Shown here in pieces: positions 4,197 through 64,000 of a stretch of 64,000 bases of DNA. The notes beneath the pieces are model-generated. The model was not told the DNA's origin. It saw nothing but the letters and a program-made list of their open reading frames with translations, and searched no databases. Origin of the DNA: an uncultured Candidatus Saccharibacteria bacterium. GTDB lineage: Bacteria; Patescibacteriota; Minisyncoccia; Phycocordibacterales; PALSA-1337. The position numbers and the translations under genes were made by a program. How positions within the stretch are numbered: the first letter of the stretch is position 1; every line of letters starts with the position of its first letter. The stretch spans positions 14,037 through 78,036 of the forward strand of contig CAYOER010000001.1 of NCBI GenBank assembly GCA_964403205.1, given 5' to 3'.

Positions 4197-5180
4197 TTAT
4201 TTTTTTAATATTTTCTTATCAAAAACATTCTTTTCATCAATATGCTGATGTAAATTCTTTATTTCCTGATATGCATTATTGAGGTCTTTTGTTAATTCCC
4301 TAATCTTCTCCATTTGATACATTCCATTTATTACATTTTTAATAAGGGTAATACCTATAAATATAGATATGATAAATACAGCAATACTTATGTATAGTTC
4401 ATTACTATTTTCAGAAAGAATTGTACGGAATAAAAGAAATATCCAAAGTATAAAAATAGCTGTTTCAATTGCAATGATTTTTATATTGAAAAGTCTGTGC
4501 TTTGTGATGGCGTAGGAGATAATAGAAATCCATATAATACTTGAGAGCGGGCTTGTCCAATCATAATTAAATATACCTAATCTCGGTAACACGAGACTAG
4601 TAATTAATGGTGGTATAAATCCAATTATAAATACTATAATCATGAAATTAAGATTTATTATGATTTGCTTATCAATAGTTTCTCTCAGTTTTTTATATAT
4701 AATATTTATCCCAATTAAAAAAATTGTAATAAAATTAATATCGAAAATAAACCAAAGTGGACCATATTCCCAACTTGGATAATTATTACTCTGTATCGTT
4801 ATAACATTACCAATAATTAAATTTGTAAAGAATAATAGATAGAAAATTAATATTAATGATAATATTAATGGATATACAATATTATCTTGTATTTTATTTT
4901 CATACGGGTATGAAATTACAAATAATAAGAATATATTAACCATTATAAATGCTAGAAAATAACTTAATTTTATAACTAAATTTGTCATATATATATCTTC
5001 TGTCATTACTGATAAATTAGCTATTCCTATAATAAAGCTCCACATAGAAAGAAAGAGAGATAAATATGAAAATAAACGTACTGACTGAATTTTTTTACCT
5101 AAATAATATAAACCTATTGAAAAAACAATAAGTATAGCTCCAGCTGACCAATCAATAATTGAATGTAAATTTGTATCCAT
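4197..5180 (-). CDS. polytopic membrane protein resembling the N-terminal sensor module of the adjacent histidine kinase, but lacking the kinase core
   Basis: Seven or more predicted TM helices followed by a coiled-coil tail. It shares the K(H/Y)RLFNIK motif plus a following TM helix with the histidine kinase at 6848-8440. No H-box or ATPase motifs. Confidence 0.45.
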   Translation of the reverse strand: MDTNLHSIIDWSAGAILIVFSIGLYYLGKKIQSVRLFSYLSLFLSMWSFIIGIANLSVMTEDIYMTNLVIKLSYFLAFIMVNIFLLFVISYPYENKIQDNIVYPLILSLILIFYLLFFTNLIIGNVITIQSNNYPSWEYGPLWFIFDINFITIFLIGINIIYKKLRETIDKQIIINLNFMIIVFIIGFIPPLITSLVLPRLGIFNYDWTSPLSSIIWISIISYAITKHRLFNIKIIAIETAIFILWIFLLFRTILSENSNELYISIAVFIISIFIGITLIKNVINGMYQMEKIRELTKDLNNAYQEIKNLHQHIDEKNVFDKKILKK

Positions 5181-5321
5181 AAGTTTTAATTTAACATTAT
5201 ATCCATTTTAAATAAATATCAATTATTTACTTAAATGTTGTACTTAATGTATAATAATAAGAAAATGACTGAGTTCTATTTAGTATTTTATAATATTAAA
5301 TAATTCAATAACTTAATTAAT

Positions 5322-6026
5322 ATGTTAACACCAAGATTTTGGAAGAGATATTTTGAGGAATATGATTTGTTAAATGAACTTACTCCGTACAGAGAATTAT
5401 TAGATGCGATTTGTGTACGTGCTAATATTAATACTGGTAACAACATACTTGATGTAGGTTCTGGTACTGGAAATTTATCTATAAAACTTGAGAAGTATGG
5501 TGCGATTGTAACAGGTATAGATTTTTCCAAGGAAGGACTAGAAATTCATAGGAAAAAATCAAATATAACAGAGTTAATTTATGGGGATATTAATCAACCA
5601 CTTCCTTTTTCTAATGACCAGTTTGAAACGGTTGTTTCAAATAATGTGCTTTATACCGTTTCTAGGAATGAACGTTTAACTGTAATGAAAGAACTTTATC
5701 GTGTTCTTAAACCTGGAGGTCGTATTATTGTTTCTAATGTGGTTGAGGGTTTTAGGCCACATGTTATTTATTTTGATCATGTCAATAGTCTTATTAAAAA
5801 AATAGGTATTTTTAAAGCTTTTATTGTTGTATTGAAATTATCTCGGTCGACGATTAAGATTTTATATTACAATTATAAGATTAATATGGAAAATAGACAC
5901 GGTGTGTATGATTTTTTTGGTTTAGGAGAACAGAAGAAATTACTAGAGGAATCAAAGTTTAAGAATGTGTCAGAAGACTATATTTTATATAGTGGTCAAG
6001 CTGTTTTAAATTGGGGTATAAAATAG
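5322..6026 (+). CDS. class I SAM-dependent methyltransferase
   Basis: Motif I ILDVGSGTGNLS, a post-I acidic residue (GIDFS), and LKPGGRIIVSN. Confidence 0.7.
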   Translation: MLTPRFWKRYFEEYDLLNELTPYRELLDAICVRANINTGNNILDVGSGTGNLSIKLEKYGAIVTGIDFSKEGLEIHRKKSNITELIYGDINQPLPFSNDQFETVVSNNVLYTVSRNERLTVMKELYRVLKPGGRIIVSNVVEGFRPHVIYFDHVNSLIKKIGIFKAFIVVLKLSRSTIKILYYNYKINMENRHGVYDFFGLGEQKKLLEESKFKNVSEDYILYSGQAVLNWGIK

Positions 6027-55437: not shown

Positions 55438-56415
55438 TCACCCCCACTTCGTCTTTATATACTCCGTCGTCTCACTCATAGAGAATGGCTGAGTGGAGTT
55501 CCCTACTCTTACAAAAAAGTCTTCTTTTTTATCTCCATTTGTGAGATATGCTGGTTTATGACTTTCTTTTACATCTACAATACAAATCTCTTTATTTTCT
55601 ATTTTCTCAAATTTTATATTTATATATTTAGAAAAAGCTAAACCAATCATATTTTTTATAAGAGTATTAACATAATTTTCAAATCCGTCTTTATCTTTTC
55701 TCTGTTGCAAAGTTTTATAATCATTTTCTAGACCGATTATTTCACCATTATCTCTTACACCGATAAGCAGAATTCCACCAGAAGCATTGAGAAAACCTAC
55801 AATAGTTTTCATAATAGATTTCTCCATTTCCTTATTCATTTCATTCTTACGGATGTCATATCGCAATGTTTCTTTGAATTCTAAAAGTAATCCTTCACCA
55901 TCTTCTATTAAACTCTTTATATCTTTTATGAAAATCTTGCCAGATGAACTATGTACCATTTGCTTTATTATATATACATATTCTTCGAAATTCCCTATAT
56001 TCTTTATTTTTGTCACTCTCTCATTATTATGTTCAAGAATAATAGTGGCATGATTCATCATCCTACCTAGAGGACTCTGATATGTCTCTACAGATGCTAC
56101 GTCAGACAAACCTACACTTTTCTTTTTTCTAAACAAAAGCCCACTTTTCTTTATTATTTCTTTTTCTCTGATTTCATAATGAGAGAAGTACCAATCTAAA
56201 AAGAGAATACCAATATAGATAAATTGAAAAAATGAGAAGATTATTATTTCAAAGATATCAAAACGGATATAATCATGAAAACCAAGATTCCTAAACATCA
56301 TTTCATAATTACCAAGAAAAGAAACGGCAAAGAAGAATAGAGAAGCGATAATTTCCATAGCTATTAGATTGCGTAGGAAAACCAATGGTCCTTCTTTTAT
56401 TATTATTACTCTCAT
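55438..56415 (-). CDS. membrane protein fusing a bPH_2 (YdbS/YdbT-like bacterial PH) domain to a Schlafen-type AlbA_2 putative DNA/RNA-binding domain
   Basis: N-terminal two TM helices plus KKSGLLFRKKKSVGLSDVASVETYQSPLGRMMNHATIILE (bPH_2). C-terminal EGLLLEFKETL...KTIVGFLNASGGILLIGVRDNGEIIGLEND (AlbA_2 pattern EFK..FaNt.GG.lliGv.d.G.i.G). Confidence 0.55.
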   Translation of the reverse strand: MRVIIIKEGPLVFLRNLIAMEIIASLFFFAVSFLGNYEMMFRNLGFHDYIRFDIFEIIIFSFFQFIYIGILFLDWYFSHYEIREKEIIKKSGLLFRKKKSVGLSDVASVETYQSPLGRMMNHATIILEHNNERVTKIKNIGNFEEYVYIIKQMVHSSSGKIFIKDIKSLIEDGEGLLLEFKETLRYDIRKNEMNKEMEKSIMKTIVGFLNASGGILLIGVRDNGEIIGLENDYKTLQQRKDKDGFENYVNTLIKNMIGLAFSKYINIKFEKIENKEICIVDVKESHKPAYLTNGDKKEDFFVRVGNSTQPFSMSETTEYIKTKWG

Positions 56416-60394: not shown

Positions 60395-60964
60395 CTAATA
60401 CTTACGAATCACTCCTTTTACAACAGCAGCGATATTTAATTCGTATTCTGGATATATTGGTTTATACTTTTTATTTGCAGGCTCTAGAAAAATAGATTTA
60501 TCAGACTTTTTTCTCAAGAATTTCATTGTCCATCCCCCATCAACCTGAGCTATGACTATATCACCGTCTTTTGGATCCTTTGTCCTCTCTACAACAACAA
60601 GATCTCCCTCTCTAATTCCCTCTTCTATCATTGAATCTCCCCTTACCTCAAGTATGAAAGTTTTAGAAGCATCTCTTATAAGATAATCATCGAAACTCAT
60701 AGTATCTAGAAGTTCTTCCTCAGCCACTGTTGGTAGTCCAGCTTCTACCAATCCTAGAAATGGGGTCTCACTTCTTAATTTCTTTGGTATGAGTCTACCC
60801 TGAGAATCTTTTGATAATACATTCTCCGCAACCAGCTTGTTCACAAGCTTATATACCGCATTTTTTGATTTGAATCCGAGTAAATTCATAATCTCTTGAT
60901 AACTCGGCATTCTCCTCTTATCGGTATAGAAAGAAACAATTTTTTGCTTATAGTTATTATTCAT
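60395..60964 (-). CDS. lexA: LexA repressor (SOS regulator)
   Basis: An N-terminal winged helix (SYQEIMNLLGFKSKNAVYKLVNKLV), the Ala-Gly cleavage site (LVEAGLP), and the S24 Ser/Lys dyad (GDSMIEEGI ... WTMKFL). Confidence 0.85.
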   Translation of the reverse strand: MNNNYKQKIVSFYTDKRRMPSYQEIMNLLGFKSKNAVYKLVNKLVAENVLSKDSQGRLIPKKLRSETPFLGLVEAGLPTVAEEELLDTMSFDDYLIRDASKTFILEVRGDSMIEEGIREGDLVVVERTKDPKDGDIVIAQVDGGWTMKFLRKKSDKSIFLEPANKKYKPIYPEYELNIAAVVKGVIRKY

Positions 60965-60971
60965 TTGATAA

Positions 60972-61256
60972 TTAGAAAATAAATGTAGTTACGTATCGAC
61001 CAAGCATTCCGAAGAAGCTAAAGAGATTCTTATCCGATGTTTTCACTGGAGCTTTTGTAGCTAATACCGGAACAGGTTTCGGAGTCTTCACATATGAATA
61101 TTGCTTCATGGCTAGAGAATTGAGCTCTGATATTAGGAATTTATGTCGACGGGAAAGGTCTTTATATGAAATGCCTTTTATAATTCTCATATCAATAAGT
61201 GTATTGATATTTTTTATTTCCTTCATAATCTCTTTTTTTAAGGTGTATTTATTCAT
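60972..61256 (-). CDS. hypothetical small protein co-transcribed upstream of lexA (first gene of the SOS-box-controlled operon)
   Basis: A 94-aa ORF 8 nt upstream of lexA, with the SOS box about 60 nt upstream. Hydrophobic C-terminus. Confidence 0.45.
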   Translation of the reverse strand: MNKYTLKKEIMKEIKNINTLIDMRIIKGISYKDLSRRHKFLISELNSLAMKQYSYVKTPKPVPVLATKAPVKTSDKNLFSFFGMLGRYVTTFIF

Positions 61257-61316
61257 ATTTTTATTTTAATTAATTAATAATTTATTATTGATAATTTATT
61301 TATAGATACATTATAG

Positions 61317-61332
61317 GTGAACGACTGTTCAC
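61317..61332. promoter_or_regulatory. Cheo-type SOS box (LexA operator) GTGAAC-gact-GTTCAC
   Basis: A GAAC-N4-GTTC palindrome (61319-61330) upstream of the small-ORF/lexA operon. Confidence 0.6.
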
Positions 61333-61365
61333 CGTCAATAAAAAGTGGGGATAACTTAATAATAA

Positions 61366-61407: not shown

Positions 61408-61749
61408 TCATGGTAGGCTATCCATCCATGTACTTTCCTTTGGATCTGGTCTACTCCATATAAGTATAAGTATGAGAATATAAATAAATCCCATAAAGAC
61501 TTGGACAGCTCCCATAAAGTATATACCAAGGCTGATAAGGATTAGTTCCTGCCAGAGACTGTTTGGCTCGAGTAAATATCTGACAGAGATATAGATGCTA
61601 GTAGGGGTCATGCAGATAATGAACCAGAGAAGTGTGGCCAATGGCCTACGATTATGAATCCAGGATAGGATATTACGTATAACAAGCCAGATACCGAGAG
61701 ATTTCACTTCTTCCACTTCCTCGACTTCACTTGCCTCTTGAGTTTTCAC
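61408..61749 (-). CDS. small hypothetical membrane protein (3 TM helices)
   Basis: A 113-aa ORF with three hydrophobic helices. Confidence 0.4.
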   Translation of the reverse strand: MKTQEASEVEEVEEVKSLGIWLVIRNILSWIHNRRPLATLLWFIICMTPTSIYISVRYLLEPNSLWQELILISLGIYFMGAVQVFMGFIYILILILIWSRPDPKESTWMDSLP

Positions 61750-62061
61750 TTGATTCCTTTTTGTTTGAGGTGCTGATTTATGATGATATTAGCACTATGA
61801 ATTTGTAGAGTCAATAATTATCTATTAATTGAAAAACCTATCTTTCCTTTTGGCTTATTTGGCCTCTCTATAAGTTGCTTAACTACTGCATGGATATTAG
61901 ATAATGGTAAATAACGACTACCACCATGTTTTGGTCTTGCAATTTGCAATATCAAAGTATCTAGATCATTTTTTGTGAGTTGAAATATAAAATCACTAAT
62001 AAATCAATATTGTGGATAACTTGCTACACTTTTCGGTTTCTATTCGGTTATAATATTACTA

Positions 62062-63633
62062 ATGTTAAATTTAACTAAGAAACAAAAAGTGGTCTTCGAT
62101 TTCATAAATAACTATATTTCAGAAAATGGTATATCTCCTACTATTGAAGAAATAAGAAGGCAGTTAAAATTAAAGGCAGTTTCCACTATTCATGAGCATA
62201 TAAAGACTCTTACAAAAAAAGGATACCTTTTAAAATCTGATAATTCAGCACGAGGTATACATAGCAAAGAAAGCTTAGACACAGTAGTAGAAATTCCGAT
62301 ATTAGGCAGAATATCTGCTGGTCAGCCTATAGAAGCTGTTGAGGAAATACAAGGTTATGCTTCATTGACAAATACAAATATTAAAAGTCCTCAAGGCTAT
62401 TATGCTTTACGTGTTATTGGAGATAGCATGATCGATGAAGGAATCTTTGATGGTGATCTTGTAATAATCAAGAAACAATCAGTTGCTGAAAATGGGCAAA
62501 CTGTAGTTGCTATAATTGATGAAAACGAAGCAACATTAAAGAAAATATATAGGGAAAATAGTGGATTCCGCTTACAACCAGCAAATCAAACCCTGCTTCC
62601 GCTTTTTAGAAAAGAAGTAGAGATACGTGGAGTTGTAGTACAAATAATAAGAAATATTAATAAGACTAGTAGTTTAGATACAGTAACTAAGAATGAATTA
62701 CATACTATTGATCTTTTTGCTGGAGTAGGTGGTATCAGGCTAGGATTTGAAAAAGCTGGATTTAAAACAGTCTTTGCTAATGATTTTGAAGCGAAATGTA
62801 AAGACACTTATGATATGAACTTTAAAGACTCTAAACTAGTAGTAGAAGATATAAGAAAAATAGGTATCGATGATCTTCCAGAATTTGATTTTCTATTGGG
62901 TGGATTTCCTTGTCAGGCTTTCTCTATTGCTGGATATAGAGAGGGTTTCAAGGACAGAAAAGATAGAGGGAATCTGTTTTTTGATGTGGCAAAGATAATA
63001 GAAGAGAGGAAACCTAAGGGTTTCTTATTGGAGAATGTAAAAAATCTCAGAAGTCATGATGGGGGTAGGACATTTGAAATAATAGAAAATACTCTAAAAA
63101 ATCTAGGTTATCATATAAAATCAAAAGTACTTAATAGCATGGAGTATGGGAATATACCCCAAAATAGAGAGCGTATTTATATTGTAGGATTCCGAGATAA
63201 AAATCATTATGATAATTTTAATTTTCCAGAGTCAATTAAATTAACAAAAAAGATTACTGATCTGCTAGAAGATGATGTACCAGAAAAATATTACTATAAT
63301 GGAAAGCCTCTATATAAAAAATTATATGGTGTTATTAAAGATGAAGGAAAAGTATATCAATGGAGAAGACAGTATGTTAGAGAAAATAAAAAAGGAGTAT
63401 GCCCAACTCTCACAGCTAATATGGGTACGGGTGGCCATAATATACCGATAATAAAAGATAAAAAAGGTATAAGAAAATTAACCCCCTTAGAGTGTGCAAG
63501 AATACAAGGGTTTCCTAATGATTTTAAATTACCAAATATTTCAGATTCAGCATTGTATAAACAATTTGGAAATTCTGTTAGTGTGCCCGTAATTGAAGCA
63601 ATAGCTAGGCAGATATTGAAAGCAATAAATTAA
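62062..63633 (+). CDS. in-frame fusion of a full LexA (HTH + Ala-Gly site + S24 peptidase) with a C5-cytosine DNA methyltransferase
   Basis: Residues 1-~200 align motif-for-motif with LexA: LTKKQKVVFDFINNYISENGISPTIEEI...EHIKTLTKKGYL; RISAGQPIEA (the A-G cleavage site); VIGDSMIDEGIFDGDLVII...ATLKKIY (Ser/Lys dyad); ...VVVQIIRNI (the LexA C-terminus). With no stop or Met, the frame continues into MTase motif I IDLFAGVGGIRLGF, motif IV GGFPCQAFSIAG, motif VI FLLENVKNL, and motif IX/X QFGNSVSVPV. Confidence 0.75.
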   Translation: MLNLTKKQKVVFDFINNYISENGISPTIEEIRRQLKLKAVSTIHEHIKTLTKKGYLLKSDNSARGIHSKESLDTVVEIPILGRISAGQPIEAVEEIQGYASLTNTNIKSPQGYYALRVIGDSMIDEGIFDGDLVIIKKQSVAENGQTVVAIIDENEATLKKIYRENSGFRLQPANQTLLPLFRKEVEIRGVVVQIIRNINKTSSLDTVTKNELHTIDLFAGVGGIRLGFEKAGFKTVFANDFEAKCKDTYDMNFKDSKLVVEDIRKIGIDDLPEFDFLLGGFPCQAFSIAGYREGFKDRKDRGNLFFDVAKIIEERKPKGFLLENVKNLRSHDGGRTFEIIENTLKNLGYHIKSKVLNSMEYGNIPQNRERIYIVGFRDKNHYDNFNFPESIKLTKKITDLLEDDVPEKYYYNGKPLYKKLYGVIKDEGKVYQWRRQYVRENKKGVCPTLTANMGTGGHNIPIIKDKKGIRKLTPLECARIQGFPNDFKLPNISDSALYKQFGNSVSVPVIEAIARQILKAIN

Positions 63634-64000
63634 AGCTTGCTTATTAATTTTTTCCAATCGTCATCTAAATTATGTAAATATTTTACAGATTTAACATATC
63701 TATACCCGTTACTAAATTTTTGACCAGGTATTGCTTTAACTTTTTCTAATTCTTCTGCATATGCAAAACCACAAATCCAAACTGGTATTTCCTCTAATTT
63801 ACCAATTTTTTTGAAATTTTTATTATCATCAATAAATTTTCTAACCTTTCCAAAAAAAGAATGGTCTCTTAATATTCTAAAAAGATGATCACTTGGTAAA
63901 CCCACTCGCGCAAATATATAAATATCACTCCTCCTTTCTTTTAGGTCTAATTCATTTGAACCCAATACAAGAAAAGCATTCTTCATTTTACTTGCTTTAA
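63630..64000 (-). CDS. hypothetical protein, convergent with the methyltransferase; probably 5'-truncated by the window edge
   Basis: The frame remains open to nt 64000 beyond the first Met (63986). No recognisable motif (not Vsr-like). Confidence 0.35.
   Translation of the reverse strand, partial: KASKMKNAFLVLGSNELDLKERRSDIYIFARVGLPSDHLFRILRDHSFFGKVRKFIDDNKNFKKIGKLEEIPVWICGFAYAEELEKVKAIPGQKFSNGYRYVKSVKYLHNLDDDWKKLISKL

Follow-up and report, generated by a model that had tools for sequence, protein, structure and literature searches.

Within a 64,000-nucleotide stretch of contig CAYOER010000001.1 from an uncultured Candidatus Saccharibacteria bacterium (hereafter, the window), a single ATG-to-stop open reading frame (ORF) of 523 amino acids (aa), located at 62062..63633 on the plus strand, joins a LexA to a C5 DNA methyltransferase. 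We conclude with good confidence that this fusion gene and a convergent nuclease gene form a mobile Type II restriction-modification (R-M) system, in which the fusion is the modification (M) gene, and the LexA-methyltransferase R-M gene pair occurs in hundreds of Patescibacteria. We estimate a probability of about 60% that the fusion is a methyltransferase-repressor resembling that of SsoII which is additionally cleavable upon contact with activated RecA (RecA*), whereby DNA damage would derepress methylation.

The LexA-methyltransferase fusion and its conservation

The initial annotation, made from the letters of this DNA, had proposed an in-frame fusion of LexA to a C5 methyltransferase, and Pfam, NCBIfam, and PADLOC profiles recover the fusion at the coordinates given above; the profile search that it had suggested returned all three expected domains, LexA_DNA_bind, Peptidase_S24, and DNA_methylase. 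On the plus strand, a LexA winged helix-turn-helix (HTH) DNA-binding domain (aa 1–65, 62062..62256; PF01726, 63 bits) with the recognition helix ...AVSTIHEHI... precedes a peptidase S24 domain (aa 79–193, 62296..62640; PF00717, 101 bits), a variable inter-domain linker (aa 199–213, 62656..62700) that contains neither a stop codon nor a Met, as had been noted before, and a C5 DNA methyltransferase domain (aa 214–520, 62701..63621; PF00145, 318 bits) that covers the DNA_methylase profile over its full length (model positions 2–324). At the level of whole families, aa 1–199 scored 190.5 bits against the lexA equivalog TIGR00498 (cutoff 110.95), and the fusion scored 350.7 bits against the dcm model TIGR00675 and 423 bits against the PADLOC MTase_II profile. 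The LexA part (aa 3–198) aligned end to end, with no large gaps, to the LexA proteins of T. maritima (3k2z) and E. coli (1jhh). This alignment places the autocleavage site at Ala86-Gly87 (gct ggt, 62317..62322, +), corresponding to A84-G85 of E. coli LexA, and the S24 dyad at Ser122 (62425-62427, +) and Lys160 (62539-62541, +), corresponding to S119 and K156. The C-terminus had been described as lying exactly where E. coli LexA ends; in fact, E. coli LexA extends 4 residues beyond the aligned ...IRN. The hallmark C5 motifs listed by the annotation are all present, i.e., FAGVGG, PCQ with the catalytic Cys284 (62911-62913, +), ENV (324–326), QNRER (367–371), and GNSV (503–506), and they are invariant in the relatives; the nearest solved structure to the methyltransferase half is M.HhaI (220 bits).

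The same architecture was sought in homologues, as the annotation had advised. A scan of one genome per species gave at least 495 related stretches, of which 80 loci were retrieved and, with the window added, yielded 81 sequences. All 80 loci contain the in-frame fusion, in some cases truncated where the contig ends, and at least 120 of the best-matching database protein clusters share the three domains and a length of ~525 aa at 73–79% identity to the fusion. An identical protein is encoded by an independent assembly (Logan SRR5855237). The metagenome-assembled genomes that carry the fusion are labelled Nomura-, Moran-, Yanofsky-, Staskawicz-, Kaiser-, Giovannoni-, Uhr-, Falkow-, Shapiro-, Nealson-, Zambryski-, Taylor-, and Vogelbacteria, among others, and the fusion is conserved at 65–79% identity across many classes of the phylum; a few carriers bear non-Patescibacteria labels, mostly on short contigs. 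In public databases, these proteins are named either "LexA" or "cytosine methyltransferase", both of which are misleading single-function names.

Among the 81 aligned fusions, Ala86, Ser122, and Lys160 are found in 81/81 and Gly87 in 80/81. This near-invariance, along with the alignment to LexA proteins of known structure, supports the earlier description of a complete LexA with its cleavage site and Ser/Lys dyad. Cys284, E324-N-V326, R369, R371, and N504 of the methyltransferase are likewise conserved in 81/81, and conservation is highest in its target-recognition region (frequency of the commonest residue, 0.88). The hinge drifts freely (0.54), as does the linker between S24 and methyltransferase, the least conserved segment of the protein (0.45), whose length varies by about 2–15 residues. 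The sole exception at the Ala-Gly site is locus L019, which has Ala-Ser (…IAASKP…) and may be a non-cleavable variant.

A Type II restriction-modification cassette

Whereas the initial annotation had treated the gene as a solitary Dcm-type enzyme beside lexA, it had overlooked a convergent nuclease gene that overlaps its stop codon by 4 nt. The 3' part of this gene (63630..64000, -), which is cut by the window end, encodes the C-terminal ~123 codons of a putative 274-aa Type II restriction endonuclease of the PD-(D/E)XK fold (PADLOC REase_II, E 2e-8), belonging to an otherwise unannotated PD-(D/E)XK family with an N-terminal HTH. We called ORFs in the 80 loci and the window, clustered them by BLAST, and compared the partner families profile to profile with hhalign. 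A convergent gene abuts the fusion stop codon (-22 to +38 bp) in 76/77 loci that have a downstream gene, a near-universal partnership that rules out a solitary or orphan methyltransferase. The partner genes fall into 8 BLAST clusters representing about seven unrelated families: hhalign indicated that c9 and c20 are probably related (82%), gave only a weak match between c9 and c12 (10%), and found the others unrelated. By Pfam, the partners include RE_Bsp6I (25 loci), PDDEXK_5 (10 loci), and RE_NgoFVII_C (8 loci); families c3, c7, c9, c12, and c20 have no Pfam or NCBIfam match, and the only clusters with PADLOC matches are c9 and c1.

The upstream neighbours are unrelated singletons in 55/78 loci with a called upstream gene, which indicates that the two-gene unit sits in random chromosomal contexts. 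Some loci have accessory genes typical of m5C R-M systems; a divergent gene for a Vsr mismatch endonuclease is found in 8 loci. A 72-aa C-protein-like gene with an HTH_3 domain lies 2–11 bp upstream of the nuclease gene (R) in 17 loci (L022, L023, L024, L026, L028, L029, L038, L046, L047, L050, L061, L065, L068, L069, L071, L075, and L078; for example, L061:8126-8344, -), where it accompanies four different nuclease families. The R genes have either their own promoters of the TTGA..-TAGAAT type or a C gene. The window cassette has no C gene, i.e., no HTH_3 controller immediately upstream of R; in L001, where the gene for the 274-aa partner lies at 4833-5657, a NUDIX hydrolase gene is located 128 bp upstream of R. 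No intrinsic terminator was found between the convergent M and R genes. Taken together, the convergent nuclease partner, the varied flanks, the Vsr and C-protein genes, and the depletion of GCNGC described below indicate a mobile Type II R-M cassette.

The target of the cassette is, with moderate confidence, predicted to be GCNGC, modified to G5mCNGC, because the partners are of the Bsp6I and NgoFVII types and because GCNGC is depleted. The NgoFVII family presumably acts at GCSGC, as given in its Pfam family description. Bsp6I cuts GCNGC (PMC2790894). In 832 kb of cassette-carrying loci, GCNGC occurs 913 times against 1636 expected (observed/expected ratio, O/E, 0.56; z -17.9), the strongest depletion among the 4-bp and NNxNN palindromes tested; it is depleted in every partner group (O/E 0.38–0.77), and the GCGC control is not (O/E 0.99–1.06). 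Within the window, GCNGC is among the most depleted sites (O/E 0.67), with the GCWGC subset the lowest (0.61).

Phage carriage of the full fusion was not found in IMG/VR, which contains only separate relatives of the methyltransferase or of LexA. Two viral contigs of 75.9 kb and 505 kb (L085:4965-6029 and L086) encode a standalone C5 methyltransferase without a LexA module that is 55% identical to aa 211–523 of the fusion and may be a phage anti-restriction methylase against this R-M specificity. Two small viral contigs (L087:1-600 and L088) encode a free-standing 199-aa LexA (LexA_DNA_bind and S24) that is 54–55% identical to the module, followed by a 271-aa ORF with no PADLOC match. About 6 kb from the cassette, the window also encodes a 325-aa protein with bPH_2 and Schlafen AlbA_2 domains (55438-56415, -), which could be another defence-related gene.

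The promoter, its candidate operator, and the transferable LexA module

A -10 hexamer, TATAAT, is located at 62049..62054 (+), as identified from the sequence and from a consensus anchored on 60 loci (TTG.. / TTCGG N6 TTCGG / TATAAT). Abutting it is a candidate operator (62029..62049, +), a tandem direct repeat of CTTTTCGGTT / CTATTCGGTT in which TTCGG recurs at 62032-62036 and 62043-62047 with an 11-bp period (TTCGG-N6-TTCGG). Throughout the phylum, the upstream region has the order TGTGGATAAC, a short spacer with the -35 element (TTGnnn), TTCGGTTT-N3-TTCGGT, TATAAT, and usually a leader of ~40 nt. The TTCGG tandem thus fills the spacer between -35 and -10, the classical position of a repressor. 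In the window, the ATG lies only 7 nt after the -10 hexamer, and the fusion mRNA is probably leaderless, judging from this spacing. A 5' leader of ~40 nt between -10 and ATG (AAATTGTAGCnnAAATAAATTTTTAAnnCAAT-ATG), with no obvious Shine-Dalgarno sequence, is conserved in most loci (e.g., L003, L022, and L028) and absent from the window copy.

The TTCGG-N6-TTCGG repeat occurs exactly once in the window. In 846 kb of loci, 63/65 exact copies are at fusion promoters and the other 2/65 fall within the fusion gene itself; no copy was found in front of a nuclease gene or at any other place, which speaks against an operator of this kind for the nuclease gene. The repeat also varies with the recognition helix: loci with an ST[IV]H[EQ]H helix have the TTCGG tandem in 59/62 cases and AGAAAA repeats in 0/62, whereas those with an STA[HY][HY][HY] helix have the TTCGG tandem in 0/6 and carry TAGAAAA/TCGAAA tandem repeats instead. 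In the latter clade (L064, L073, L075, L076, L080, and L045), these repeats keep the 11-bp period, and in L064, L073, and L075 they form two oppositely oriented pairs flanking the -10 element, which hints at looping or tetramer binding. The palindrome GAAC-N4-GTTC is absent from every fusion promoter examined and is thereby ruled out as the fusion operator. Because the repeat is almost confined to fusion promoters in these loci and co-varies with the recognition helix, the fused LexA module looks like a private autorepressor that would bind TTCGG repeats and regulate only its own gene.

Just upstream of the -35 region, at 62011..62019 (+), is TGTGGATAA, an exact match to the DnaA-box consensus (TTATCCACA on the opposite strand) and the only exact copy in the window. 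In the 846 kb of loci, 50/76 exact DnaA boxes are at fusion promoters, compared to about 0.25 expected, and the box is retained even where the operator repeats differ. A TTATCC(A/C)CA box occupies the equivalent position at the housekeeping lexA promoter, both in the window (61346-61354, TGGGGATAA, with 1 mismatch) and in 4/4 orthologous loci (L094:1021, L095:380, L096:389, and L097:334). These observations suggest that LexA-type promoters are co-regulated by DnaA or another factor in Patescibacteria.

The housekeeping lexA operon, which lies outside the cassette (60395..61338, -), comprises a 94-aa ORF (60972-61256, -) and a 189-aa LexA (60395-60964, -). It has a TTGACG-17-TATAAT promoter (61338..61310, -) with an SOS box, GGTGAAC-N4-GTTCACC (61316-61333), in the promoter spacer; the same SOS box is found in the same place in 4/4 orthologous loci. 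This LexA scored 113.3 bits against TIGR00498 (cutoff 110.95), shares 30% identity with the LexA module of the fusion, and has at least 4956 homologues of ~188 aa, which their source databases name LexA. A small ORF of 65–94 aa (…IDxRIIKG(I/V)SY…RHKFL…) with no Pfam match always precedes the housekeeping lexA within the same SOS-box operon (window 60972-61256, -; L094:1104-1301, L095:466-669, L096:492-698, and L097:420-659). The initial annotation had placed the fusion divergently from a canonical lexA operon with an SOS box. The SOS box is there; the direct divergence is not, as a 113-aa ORF (61408-61749, -) and a terminator intervene. The adjacency is not conserved in other genomes, where the cassette has different neighbours; given this and the intervening ORF, the nearness of the two loci is coincidental. 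The proposal that the cell has two LexA specificities agrees with the different candidate operators, i.e., GGTGAAC-N4-GTTCACC versus the tandem TTCGG.

We then searched the LexA module (aa 1–205) against 1.84 billion representative proteins. Its nearest relatives are mostly longer proteins (233–890 aa) with the module at residues ~2–200, and ordinary LexAs of ~200 aa dominate only below ~165 bits. LexA_DNA_bind and S24 are present in 57/57 long relatives examined, and the C-terminal parts of these proteins are methyltransferases of the N6_N4_Mtase (31), Eco57I (7), D12/Dam (5), N6_Mtase (5), MmeI (4), and C5 (3) types. At about 35–55% identity between modules, all 57 retain the Gly of the cleavage site and both dyad residues, and every long relative with a name is from Patescibacteria. 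In L082, a fusion of LexA to an N6-adenine methyltransferase is followed by a convergent gene. In L084, a fusion of LexA to an Eco57I-type methyltransferase is accompanied by a second, C5 methyltransferase and a convergent RE_Alw26IDE nuclease, constituting a typical Type IIS system. Both have a DnaA-like box, the TTCGG tandem, and a -10 element upstream, as does the C5 fusion. The two nearest "standalone" relatives of the module are a copy truncated by a contig end and a split fusion in L098 (1155-2671), in which a LexA-like gene (222 aa) and an N6_N4 methyltransferase gene (286 aa) lie on the same strand with a 13-nt overlap; the latter is either a genuine split fusion or a frameshift. The unit of promoter, operator, and LexA is thus fused to at least five methyltransferase families besides C5, and on this comparison of sequences its parts appear to act as one transferable controller of R-M methyltransferases.

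Proposed control by DNA damage, alternatives, and known systems

In the mechanism that we favour, the LexA module would dimerise via S24, bind TTCGG-N6-TTCGG, and repress its own M promoter. Such autorepression would confer M homeostasis, as is established for the dual-function methyltransferase-repressors of SsoII, Ecl18kI, and EcoRII (PMC12707154). Contact with RecA* on single-stranded DNA would then trigger cleavage at Ala86-Gly87, severing the DNA-binding domain; upon damage, including breaks made by the cassette nuclease at unmethylated sites, the M promoter would open and the methyltransferase would rise. In addition, strong transcription of M could lower that of R, because the two convergent genes overlap at their 3' ends and no terminator separates them. 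The net outcome would be a damage-triggered restriction alleviation for a Type II system. Our confidence falls along these steps, from self-repression to RecA* cleavage, M derepression, and finally R interference. The module is probably still cleaved upon contact with RecA*, given that more than 130 divergent sequences, with six enzyme families attached, keep the site and the dyad essentially unchanged. An imbalance of R and M in Type II systems induces SOS (PMC3874152); the cassette would in this way detect autoimmune breaks of its own making and answer them with more methylation. The damage-responsive switch predicted by the initial annotation is therefore a reasonable inference from the invariant autoproteolysis residues; of the effects it had proposed, derepression of the gene's own expression would fit the operator evidence better than a changed targeting of the methyltransferase.

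Several points weigh against this mechanism. Operator binding, self-cleavage, RecA dependence, GCNGC specificity, and transcriptional interference are all steps that we infer from sequence. The window promoter has a poor -35 element and was missed by a sigma-70 scan, its assignment resting on the 60-locus consensus. LexA normally binds palindromes, so that an operator made of direct repeats would be unusual. The AlphaFold2 model of the full-length fusion, built from a 24-sequence alignment, has a predicted local distance difference test score of 49 and a predicted template modelling score of 0.43 and is unusable for domain packing. A search of the 64-kb window for a RecA-like Walker A motif found none, and we assume that RecA is encoded elsewhere in the genome from general knowledge of Patescibacteria. 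As for the target, the depletion figures come from cassette-carrying DNA only, and CCWGG and GGCC are likewise depleted (O/E 0.65–0.67), so that the depletion of GCNGC is not unique; moreover, the closest solved relative, M.HhaI, recognises GCGC, which leaves partner identity and site avoidance as the grounds for GCNGC. Finally, in the 17 loci where a separate C protein already controls R, the interference step would be superfluous.

An unlikely alternative, although the best of those considered, is that the fusion is an SsoII-like autorepressor only, in which LexA would serve DNA binding and dimerisation with no response to damage, and the S24 residues would be structural or support a slow constitutive self-turnover. 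Simple negative autoregulation fits the exclusivity and the position of the operator, and dual-function methyltransferase-repressors without a protease are well established (PMC12707154). However, hardly any change at the Ala-Gly site, and none at the Ser or the Lys, is seen among the 81 fusions and the 57 fusions to other methyltransferases, while the hinge and linker drift. S24 members that abandon cleavage commonly lose residues of the site or the dyad, which counts further against a purely structural role.

It is considerably less probable that the fusion is a suicide or abortive-infection switch, in which cleavage would expose degrons and destabilise the methyltransferase, methylation would fall, and the nuclease would attack the chromosome of a damaged or phage-infected cell. 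The predicted N-terminal fragment ends in ...I(A/S)A and in this respect resembles E. coli LexA 1–84, whose C-terminus, ...VAA, is recognised by ClpXP. R-M systems are also known to behave as addiction modules (PMC3874152). Nevertheless, cleavage would remove the DNA-binding domain of the repressor, and the first predicted effect is more M; in addition, the methyltransferase would remain joined to S24, and no degron is evident on this C-terminal product.

We consider it very improbable that the fusion chiefly governs the SOS response of the organism, or that it acts as a solitary Dam/CcrM-type epigenetic regulator coupling the methylation of a regulon to LexA, even though it outscores the window's standalone LexA on the lexA equivalog (190 versus 113 bits) and is conserved at 65–79% identity over many classes. 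Throughout the phylum, the housekeeping LexA is conserved as a separate protein with a classical SOS box in its promoter. In the window and the 846 kb of loci, the candidate operator was found at no promoter but that of the fusion, and the fusion is almost always paired with a nuclease in random genomic contexts. An assembly or frameshift artefact joining separate genes, with the overlapping ORFs of L098 as the only related case, is excluded by the identical protein in an independent assembly and by recurrence of the same junction in the 80 loci and at least 120 clusters drawn from many studies.

The proposed repressor, cleavable upon contact with RecA*, resembles several known systems in part. 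M.SsoII, M.Ecl18kI, M.EcoRII, M.MspI, and M.ScrFIA are likewise C5 methyltransferases, in which an N-terminal DNA-binding region represses the M promoter and balances M and R. The fusion has such a region and an operator at its own promoter (binding predicted); however, as the initial annotation had recognised, the architecture is different. SsoII-type enzymes have a simple HTH of about 70 aa and no protease, and their R and M genes are usually divergent with one shared control region, whereas the fusion has an add-on of 200 aa, a complete LexA winged HTH and S24 with the cleavage machinery intact, R and M converge, and the add-on is found on five other methyltransferase families as well. With LexA (1jhh and 3k2z) it shares end-to-end homology, the cleavage site, the dyad, an operator between -35 and -10, and the layout of an autoregulated promoter, which is the same as that of the Patescibacteria housekeeping lexA. 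Every sequence feature expected of a LexA is found; the palindromic SOS box is absent from the fusion promoters, and no damage regulon is evident within the window and the 846 kb of loci. Unlike LexA, it is covalently joined to an enzyme, and its candidate operator consists of direct repeats instead of a palindrome.

The Bsp6I/Fnu4HI (GCNGC) and NgoFVII (GCSGC) systems share with the cassettes the partner families (25 and 8 loci), an M.HhaI-like core, and GCNGC avoidance, but the described systems have no LexA module on M, and the window partner is from another PD-(D/E)XK family. In C-protein systems (PvuII, Esp1396I, and AhdI), a dedicated small regulator times R versus M, and a C-like HTH_3 gene is present in the 17 related loci mentioned above; C proteins are separate HTH proteins of the XRE type and act on C/R promoters, whereas the LexA module is fused to M and would act on the M promoter. 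The proposed outcome, restriction damped while unmodified sites exist, is the same as in Type I restriction alleviation after damage. EcoKI alleviation, however, involves the host ClpXP degrading HsdR and thus operates on the R subunit, whereas the sensor of the fusion would be within M and act on transcription.

A LexA-methyltransferase fusion was not described in the literature searched in full text, whose coverage did not extend to a 2017 paper on SOS in Patescibacteria (doi 10.1111/1462-2920.13826). R-M reviews from 2013 and 2025 (PMC3874152 and PMC12707154) make no mention of LexA-fused methyltransferases, and a 2026 preprint on methyltransferases of the candidate phyla radiation (CPR) makes none of LexA, S24, or fusions. 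These fusions are thus widespread and, within the literature searched, unreported. Their annotation by a single function can mislead SOS-regulon reconstructions in CPR genomes. Tentatively, and at somewhat less than even odds, they may represent a third general class of R-M controllers, alongside C proteins and SsoII-type repressors, i.e., a portable unit on at least six methyltransferase families that wires R-M to RecA*. If so, Type II systems would detect their own autoimmune breaks, boost methylation, and damp restriction, and the conserved DnaA box would possibly link R-M to replication status.

It is understood only in part how Type II systems spare the host once repair or recombination has produced unmethylated sites. 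To our knowledge, the alleviation of restriction after damage has been elucidated for Type I enzymes alone, where it depends on host proteases. If confirmed, a LexA switch that is built into a methyltransferase and responds to RecA would be a self-contained solution to this problem and a new logic of immune control. The LexA module and its candidate operator would form a compact pair, orthogonal to the housekeeping LexA and insulated from it, which might find use as a genetic part that responds to damage. The cassette would also bear on the defence of Patescibacteria, which for the most part have no CRISPR and seem to depend on R-M systems; the reading that we suggest is that the immune systems of these bacteria may sense DNA damage directly.

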